From Escherichia coli (GTDB taxonomy: Bacteria; Pseudomonadota; Gammaproteobacteria; Enterobacterales; Enterobacteriaceae), in assembly GCF_003334765.1 (NCBI RefSeq), contig NZ_QOWT01000141.1: a stretch of DNA of 327 nucleotides; one strand, 5' to 3'. The position numbers and the translations under genes were made by a program. Positions 1-327 of the stretch are shown here, piece by piece (position 1 is the first letter of the stretch; every line of letters begins with the position of its first letter). Under the pieces are notes generated by a model that saw only the letters and a program-made list of their open reading frames with translations, made no database searches and was not told the DNA's origin.

Positions 1-327
1 TCCAGCTCCCTGAGTGATTGCCATGCGCCGCTGGTAGAACACATTCGCCAGGGCGTGGTTACCCGCATTTATACCTCTGGCCTGCGCGGTCCACTGGCGG
101 AAGAAATCTCCCGTGGTCTGCTGGCGGAACCGGTGCAAATCCACTCTCACGGCGGACGTGTGCATCTGGTACAGAGCGGCGAACTGAATATCGATGTGGC
201 TTTCCTCGGCGTCCCGTCCTGTGATGAATTCGGTAATGCCAACGGCTACTCCGGTAAAGCCTGCTGCGGCTCCCTCGGCTATGCAATGGTTGATGCCGAC
301 AACGCAAAACAGGTCGTGATGCTTACC
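1..327 (+). CDS. citF: Citrate lyase alpha subunit (citrate CoA-transferase), internal fragment; partial at both 5' and 3' ends, codon phase 0 at position 1
   Basis: Seen in sequence: frame 1 is open across all 109 codons with no stop, while the other two + frames contain stops (TGA 12-14 and TGA 222-224 in frame 3; TGA 11-13 and TAG 35-37 in frame 2). Codon usage is strongly biased toward enterobacterial preferred codons: Leu CTG in 8 of 11, Arg only CGC/CGT, Gly mostly GGC/GGT. The translation contains the segments HSHGGR and VAFLGVPSCDEFGNANGYSGKACCGSLGY, which I recall from the E. coli CitF protein, in the N-terminal third. The identification is from memory, not a database search. Sub-family assignment within the CitF/MdcA-type CoA-transferase family (citrate lyase versus malonate decarboxylase alpha subunit) would need an alignment to confirm. 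Confidence 0.8.

Follow-up and report, generated by a model that had tools for sequence, protein, structure and literature searches.

The citF locus and the position of the window

The window analysed here, a single 327-nt stretch of Escherichia coli DNA, lies within citF, which encodes the citrate lyase alpha subunit. By Megablast it was 100% identical to positions 3466717–3467043 of NZ_AP018784.2 (E. coli SK1144), within the annotated citF. In the coordinates of the SK1144 locus (L001), the window spans 5001..5327 and the RefSeq citF coding sequence (CDS) spans 4713..6245; the window is offset from the gene start by 288 nt, or 96 codons, and its frame +1 is therefore the annotated frame. Translation of frame +1 gave 109 codons with no stop, and the resulting peptide equals residues 97–205 of the translated 510-aa citF CDS. 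We consider it virtually certain that the window represents codons 97–205 of the 510-codon citF of the E. coli chromosome, in frame 1 of the + strand. The features of the window are:

1..327, + strand (frame +1): internal segment of the citF CDS, codons 97–205, with neither start nor stop codon in the window
1..327, − strand (minus frame 1): antisense 'shadow' open frame, in register with citF, with zero stops in the window
18..224, + strand (frame +3): spurious 68-aa open reading frame (ORF) with a TTG start, overlapping citF out of frame
59..307, − strand (minus frame 3): spurious 82-aa antisense ORF with a TTG start

A first-pass annotation had described frame 1 as uninterrupted across the window and the window as wholly internal to one gene, with start and stop codons to be recovered on extension. 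The SK1144 locus, identical to the window, bore this out: citF extends in phase as a 510-aa CDS, with its start 288 nt upstream of the window and its stop 918 nt downstream. The same annotation had warned that the ORF track supplied with the sequence omits the true gene. Indeed, at a minimum of 60 aa, the track holds only the 68-aa frame-3 TTG ORF (18..224, + strand) and the 82-aa antisense ORF (59..307, − strand). The citF frame is not listed because the ORF finder drops ORFs that run off either end, and the window holds neither the start nor the stop, as that annotation had supposed.

RefSeq annotates the SK1144 locus as dpiA-dpiB followed by citC-citD-citE-citF-citX-citG-citT-rna, with dpiBA divergent from the cit genes. 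Thus, citF is adjoined by partner-subunit and accessory genes (citD, citE, citC, citX and citG). This dpiBA/citCDEFXGT organization is the one described for E. coli K-12 (PMC2735749). The longest citF ORF begins with a GTG at L001 4671 (4671..6245, 524 aa) and overlaps the end of citE, while the RefSeq start is the ATG at 4713 (510 aa). The match of citF to the family model TIGR01584 begins at residue 36, and homology consequently does not settle the choice between these two starts.

Protein family searches identified the frame +1 peptide along its entire length. The Pfam family CitF (PF04223) matched query residues 1–109 to model positions 55–163 (E = 4.4e-61), and the NCBIfam model TIGR01584 (citF) matched residues 1–109 to model positions 78–186 (E = 1.3e-51, 175.8 bits). 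The curated cut-off of TIGR01584 (501.45 bits) refers to full-length proteins, and a 109-aa piece of a 492-position model necessarily scores below it. The full-length CDS holding the window (L001 4713–6242) scored 815.3 bits (E = 1.7e-245, model positions 17–492 of 492), which exceeds this equivalog cut-off. Among solved structures, the peptide matched residues 96–204 of PDB 1xr4, named 'citrate lyase alpha chain/citrate-ACP transferase' (E = 9.2e-51), and also matched 2hj0 (E = 3.5e-34). From this similarity in sequence, it seems safe to assume that the protein encoded here shares its fold with these solved CitF-type structures. The end-to-end frame-1 alignment to CitF proteins that had been predicted was thus obtained with PF04223, TIGR01584 and 1xr4, each covering residues 1–109. 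None of the outcomes named beforehand as contrary to this reading (best hits in frame 3 or on the minus strand, or a frame 1 that lacks a homologue and acquires stops on extension) occurred.

Megablast gave matches of ≥95% identity to the window in 5422 of 5426 complete E. coli genomes, many of them at 100%, and the annotation at all matches listed was 'citF: citrate lyase subunit alpha'. A core gene of E. coli, citF has long been known and characterized, and its annotation is correct.

The remaining 4 of the 5426 complete genomes gave no match to the window, which loss of citF may explain. Matching places exceeded matching genomes by 45, indicating two copies in some genomes, and 2 of the places lie on plasmids. 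We compared two extrachromosomal records with the SK1144 locus, and both have the same layout. One (NZ_LR890350.1, 100973–111298; L007) belongs to plasmid 2 of E. coli MSB1_9D, a 300-kb conjugative IncHI1A plasmid that carries a complete second dpiAB-citCDEFXGT-rna locus with the flanking rna kept. Its citF is 81–82% identical to chromosomal E. coli citF, with 88% amino-acid identity, and the locus appears to be a piece of chromosome taken up from a different enterobacterial genus. The other (NZ_CP110860.1, 34606–44932; L012) is 'peccDNA113' of E. coli TSW4848-W1, a 113-kb circular record classed as non-mobilizable. It carries an ordinary chromosomal dpiAB-cit-rna-rnk region, with a citF 97.7% identical to that of SK1144, and may represent a circle of chromosomal DNA, excised or extrachromosomal, or else a product of assembly. 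The term eccDNA does not appear in PMC11332342, which mentions strain SW4848. In addition, matches to the window include several PLSDB 'plasmid' records with lengths of 4.8–5.4 Mb (among them NZ_CP134663.1, 4.90 Mb, and CP125156.1, 5.37 Mb), which are almost certainly chromosomes labelled as plasmids. Because of such mislabelled records in PLSDB, plasmid matches for chromosomal genes need to be read with care.

Coding signal of frame +1

An open frame by itself is weak evidence for a gene, being only modestly unlikely by chance at this length. Of 20,000 mononucleotide shuffles of the window, 2.2% left a given frame entirely free of stops, and 11.3% had one or more of the six frames open throughout. 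Moreover, the open frame +1 is not unique: minus frame 1, which the first-pass annotation did not mention, is equally open, and this corrects that account. Since minus frame 1 is also stop-free, openness alone cannot decide between +1 and −1.

To score codon usage, we calculated codon log-odds (coding versus background) with a table trained on the eight neighbouring annotated genes, leaving citF out. The six frames of the window scored as follows:

Frame +1: +44.1 bits
Frame −1: +13.2 bits
Frame +2: −51.7 bits
Frame +3: −77.2 bits
Frame −2: −55.0 bits
Frame −3: −50.8 bits

Windows taken in frame from the neighbouring genes had a mean of 39.1 bits (sd 11.3), and the frame +1 score is typical of them, in agreement with the earlier remark that frame 1 shows the codon bias of a real enterobacterial gene. 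Eight of its 11 leucines are encoded by CTG, arginine is encoded only by CGT or CGC, and ATA, AGA and AGG are absent.

We then compared the window with 11 homologues. Six are diverged E. coli alleles, one is the plasmid copy (81% identical), and the others come from Klebsiella pneumoniae, K. aerogenes, Lelliottia and Azospirillum. Frame +1 was open in all 11, with amino-acid identities of 68–99% overall and 68–94% for Klebsiella, Lelliottia, Azospirillum and the plasmid copy. Variable sites among the E. coli alleles (n = 25) fell at codon position 3 in 21 cases, at position 1 in four and at position 2 in none (P = 3e-7, chi-square test). Read in frame +1, 22 of these 25 polymorphic sites were synonymous and the other 3 nonsynonymous, although only a fraction of 0.25 would be synonymous if changes were random (P = 7e-11, binomial test). 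Counted by codon, 8 of 56 changed codons were nonsynonymous in frame +1 among the E. coli alleles. The same bias held at greater distance: 52 of the 61 differences between the plasmid copy and the window lie at codon position 3, and across the whole of citF, the SK1144 and plasmid genes differ at 43, 21 and 230 sites of codon positions 1, 2 and 3, respectively. Frame +1 is under purifying selection.

A single nonsynonymous site is common to all sampled alleles. At window position 250 (CitF residue 180), the window allele encodes Ser (TCC) and all six other E. coli alleles encode Thr (ACC). Serine is also found at this residue in K. pneumoniae and Azospirillum, and the site is a conservative lineage polymorphism.

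Overlapping open frames and embedded elements

One competitor of the citF frame is antisense to it. Minus frame 1 is stop-free not only over the whole window but for 467 codons in context (L001 4887..6287), and it holds a 464-aa ORF with an ATG start (4887..6281) that covers almost all of citF. Its openness speaks for the reading that this ORF is itself a gene, whether one that overlaps citF or the true gene in its place. A run of 467 codons would indeed be very unlikely at the combined TTA, CTA and TCA frequency of 1.0–5.1% found in six of the eight neighbouring genes, and the codon log-odds of the frame are mildly positive. The openness is, however, fully explained by the codons of citF itself. 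On the opposite strand, TTA, CTA and TCA read as the three stop codons, and the antisense run is open because citF nearly avoids them, with 1 TTA, 0 CTA and 0 TCA among 511 codons (0.2%). A like effect is seen opposite citE, which has none of these codons (0 of 303) and for that reason carries its own antisense ORF of 348 aa (L001 3665..4711). The score of +13.2 bits reflects the periodicity of the sense strand, mirrored onto its complement; positive scores in frame −1 are known to arise in this way. Substitutions also set the two strands apart: read in frame −1, 43 of the 56 codons that changed among E. coli alleles were nonsynonymous, which is about the neutral expectation, versus the 8 of 56 in frame +1. 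Stops interrupt the frame within the window in three of the five distant homologues, and nine stop-generating codons in the 81%-identical plasmid citF shatter the shadow ORF. NCBIfam gave no match for the full 464-aa or 348-aa antisense translations, and Pfam returned only noise for the translation of minus frame 1 (E ≥ 0.1).

Genes that avoid TTA, CTA and TCA are well known to give rise to antisense shadow (mirror) ORFs, a class of artefact. The 467-codon frame opposite citF does not differ from such ORFs in any respect: it is in register with the gene, and the stop mirrors are almost absent from citF. We conclude that the 464-aa ORF is a codon-usage by-product of citF and no gene. The proposal that it is a gene is already largely refuted, and we give it next to no credence. 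It is just as hard to credit that the 464-aa ORF, together with the 348-aa ORF opposite citE, represents a young Escherichia-specific antisense gene or product whose openness has been kept in E. coli and not in its relatives. Naive ORF finders could nonetheless call the citF and citE shadow ORFs as genes.

The two ORFs on the track could in principle encode small proteins, alone or overlapping citF, as both have TTG starts and both remain open in the sampled close E. coli alleles. Yet openness within E. coli is expected at 96–98% nucleotide identity, and codon usage speaks strongly against both frames (−77.2 bits for frame +3 and −50.8 bits for frame −3). In each ORF, 41 of 42 changed codons were nonsynonymous among the E. 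coli alleles. In other genera, both ORFs lose starts and gain stops. The start of the + strand ORF is lost (CTG or CGC) in four homologues, and the ORF contains 2–4 internal stops in four of the five distant homologues; the start of the − strand ORF is lost in all five distant homologues, with internal stops in four of the five. NCBIfam gave no match at E ≤ 10 for the translations of either ORF or of frame −1, and no promoter-like site was found in the window. It is therefore extremely improbable that the 68-aa and 82-aa ORFs are real small proteins, and the earlier caution that reading the track alone would misannotate this region as two small hypothetical proteins was well founded. A shorter ORF of 41 aa (194..319), which starts with ATG, was considered as a small protein and rejected: its start (position 194) reads ACG in each of the six other E. 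coli alleles, nearly all changes in it are nonsynonymous, and its codon score is negative.

We also considered whether the window holds a non-coding element of its own, be it a small RNA, a riboswitch-like structure, an internal promoter or terminator, or a repeat. The one feature in favour is an imperfect 18-nt direct repeat (85–102 and 112–129, 83% identical), but this merely encodes two similar stretches of the frame +1 peptide, RGPLAE and RGLLAE. Searches of both strands of the window against Rfam gave no match at E ≤ 1, and scans of the window found neither promoter-like nor terminator-like sites and no inverted repeats. The predicted RNA fold was no better than that of shuffled sequences (z = −0.40), with 32 of 100 shuffles folding as well. 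An embedded element of this kind is accordingly most improbable, and the window is best read as citF coding sequence. The two copies of the direct repeat lie 27 nt apart. More distant homologues no longer have the initial Arg-Gly in the second copy (AGLMEN or HGLM..), while the first stays RGKL..; the repeat is probably a matter of chance or of local structural similarity.

CitF function and significance

As for relatives of known structure, the window peptide aligns without gaps to residues 96–204 of 1xr4, the putative citrate lyase alpha chain of Salmonella typhimurium, which places the window in the N-terminal half of CitF. The two share long identical blocks, for example PVQIHSHGGRV and SGELNIDVAFLGVP. 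By sequence comparison, 1xr4 is of the more diverged paralogue or orthologue type, and its differences follow the pattern seen in citF of K. pneumoniae, a copy with 75% amino-acid identity to the window. With respect to E. coli CitF (TIGR01584, PF04223), the window differs in nothing, being a 109-codon internal fragment; its nucleotide sequence is identical to annotated citF of many E. coli genomes, and the frame and the operon are the same.

Full-length CitF also showed faint matches to acetate/succinyl CoA-transferase families (NF053666, NF053853 and TIGR02429; E = 0.004–0.06), mostly in its C-terminal part. These matches scored 12.7–16.1 bits, far below the family cut-offs of 128.5–740 bits, and CitF is no member of these families. 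The faintest, to TIGR02429, spans CitF residues 45–122, contains no stretch that passes alone and touches the first 26 residues of the window; the others lie outside the window. A distant relationship of CitF to CoA-transferases is accepted, and the faint matches fit with it.

Family membership, the name given by the PDB depositors and the literature point to citrate:acetyl-ACP transferase activity (EC 2.8.3.10) for this CitF. Historically, purified CitDEF of Klebsiella and of E. coli has been assayed for such activity. Going by the established biochemistry of the family, CitF would act as a citrate:acetyl-ACP transferase that swaps acetyl for citryl on the prosthetic-group thiol of CitD, with release of acetate. 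CitD would be the small acyl-carrier subunit bearing the prosthetic group, and CitE (beta) would cleave citryl-ACP to oxaloacetate, regenerating acetyl-ACP. Of the products of the neighbouring genes, CitC, CitX and CitG are predicted to make and activate the prosthetic group of the holo-ACP, and CitT to import citrate in exchange for succinate, as an antiporter. The role of CitT as a citrate/succinate antiporter has been described (PMC2735749).

Published subunit activities are acetyl-ACP transferase for alpha, citryl-S-ACP lyase for beta and ACP for gamma (PMC7164622). The Introduction of the same paper pairs citD and citE with alpha and beta, and citF with the acyl-carrier gamma subunit (PMC7164622). 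This conflicts with the names in RefSeq, TIGR01584, Pfam and PDB, in which citF is alpha, citE is beta and citD is the ACP, and the pairing in that Introduction is probably a slip. Our assignment of citF to alpha follows the TIGR01584, Pfam, PDB and RefSeq names.

The biological weight of this finding is small, as citF has long been characterized and 5422 of the 5426 complete E. coli genomes carry it. Its value is methodological. For a short window that lies wholly inside a gene, an ORF list that omits ORFs running off the ends shows only spurious, out-of-frame ones and hides the real frame. An uninterrupted frame is likewise unsafe as a sole criterion, since the antisense frame in register with citF is just as open; frames +1 and −1 were told apart by homology, by codon usage and by where in the codon the substitutions fall.
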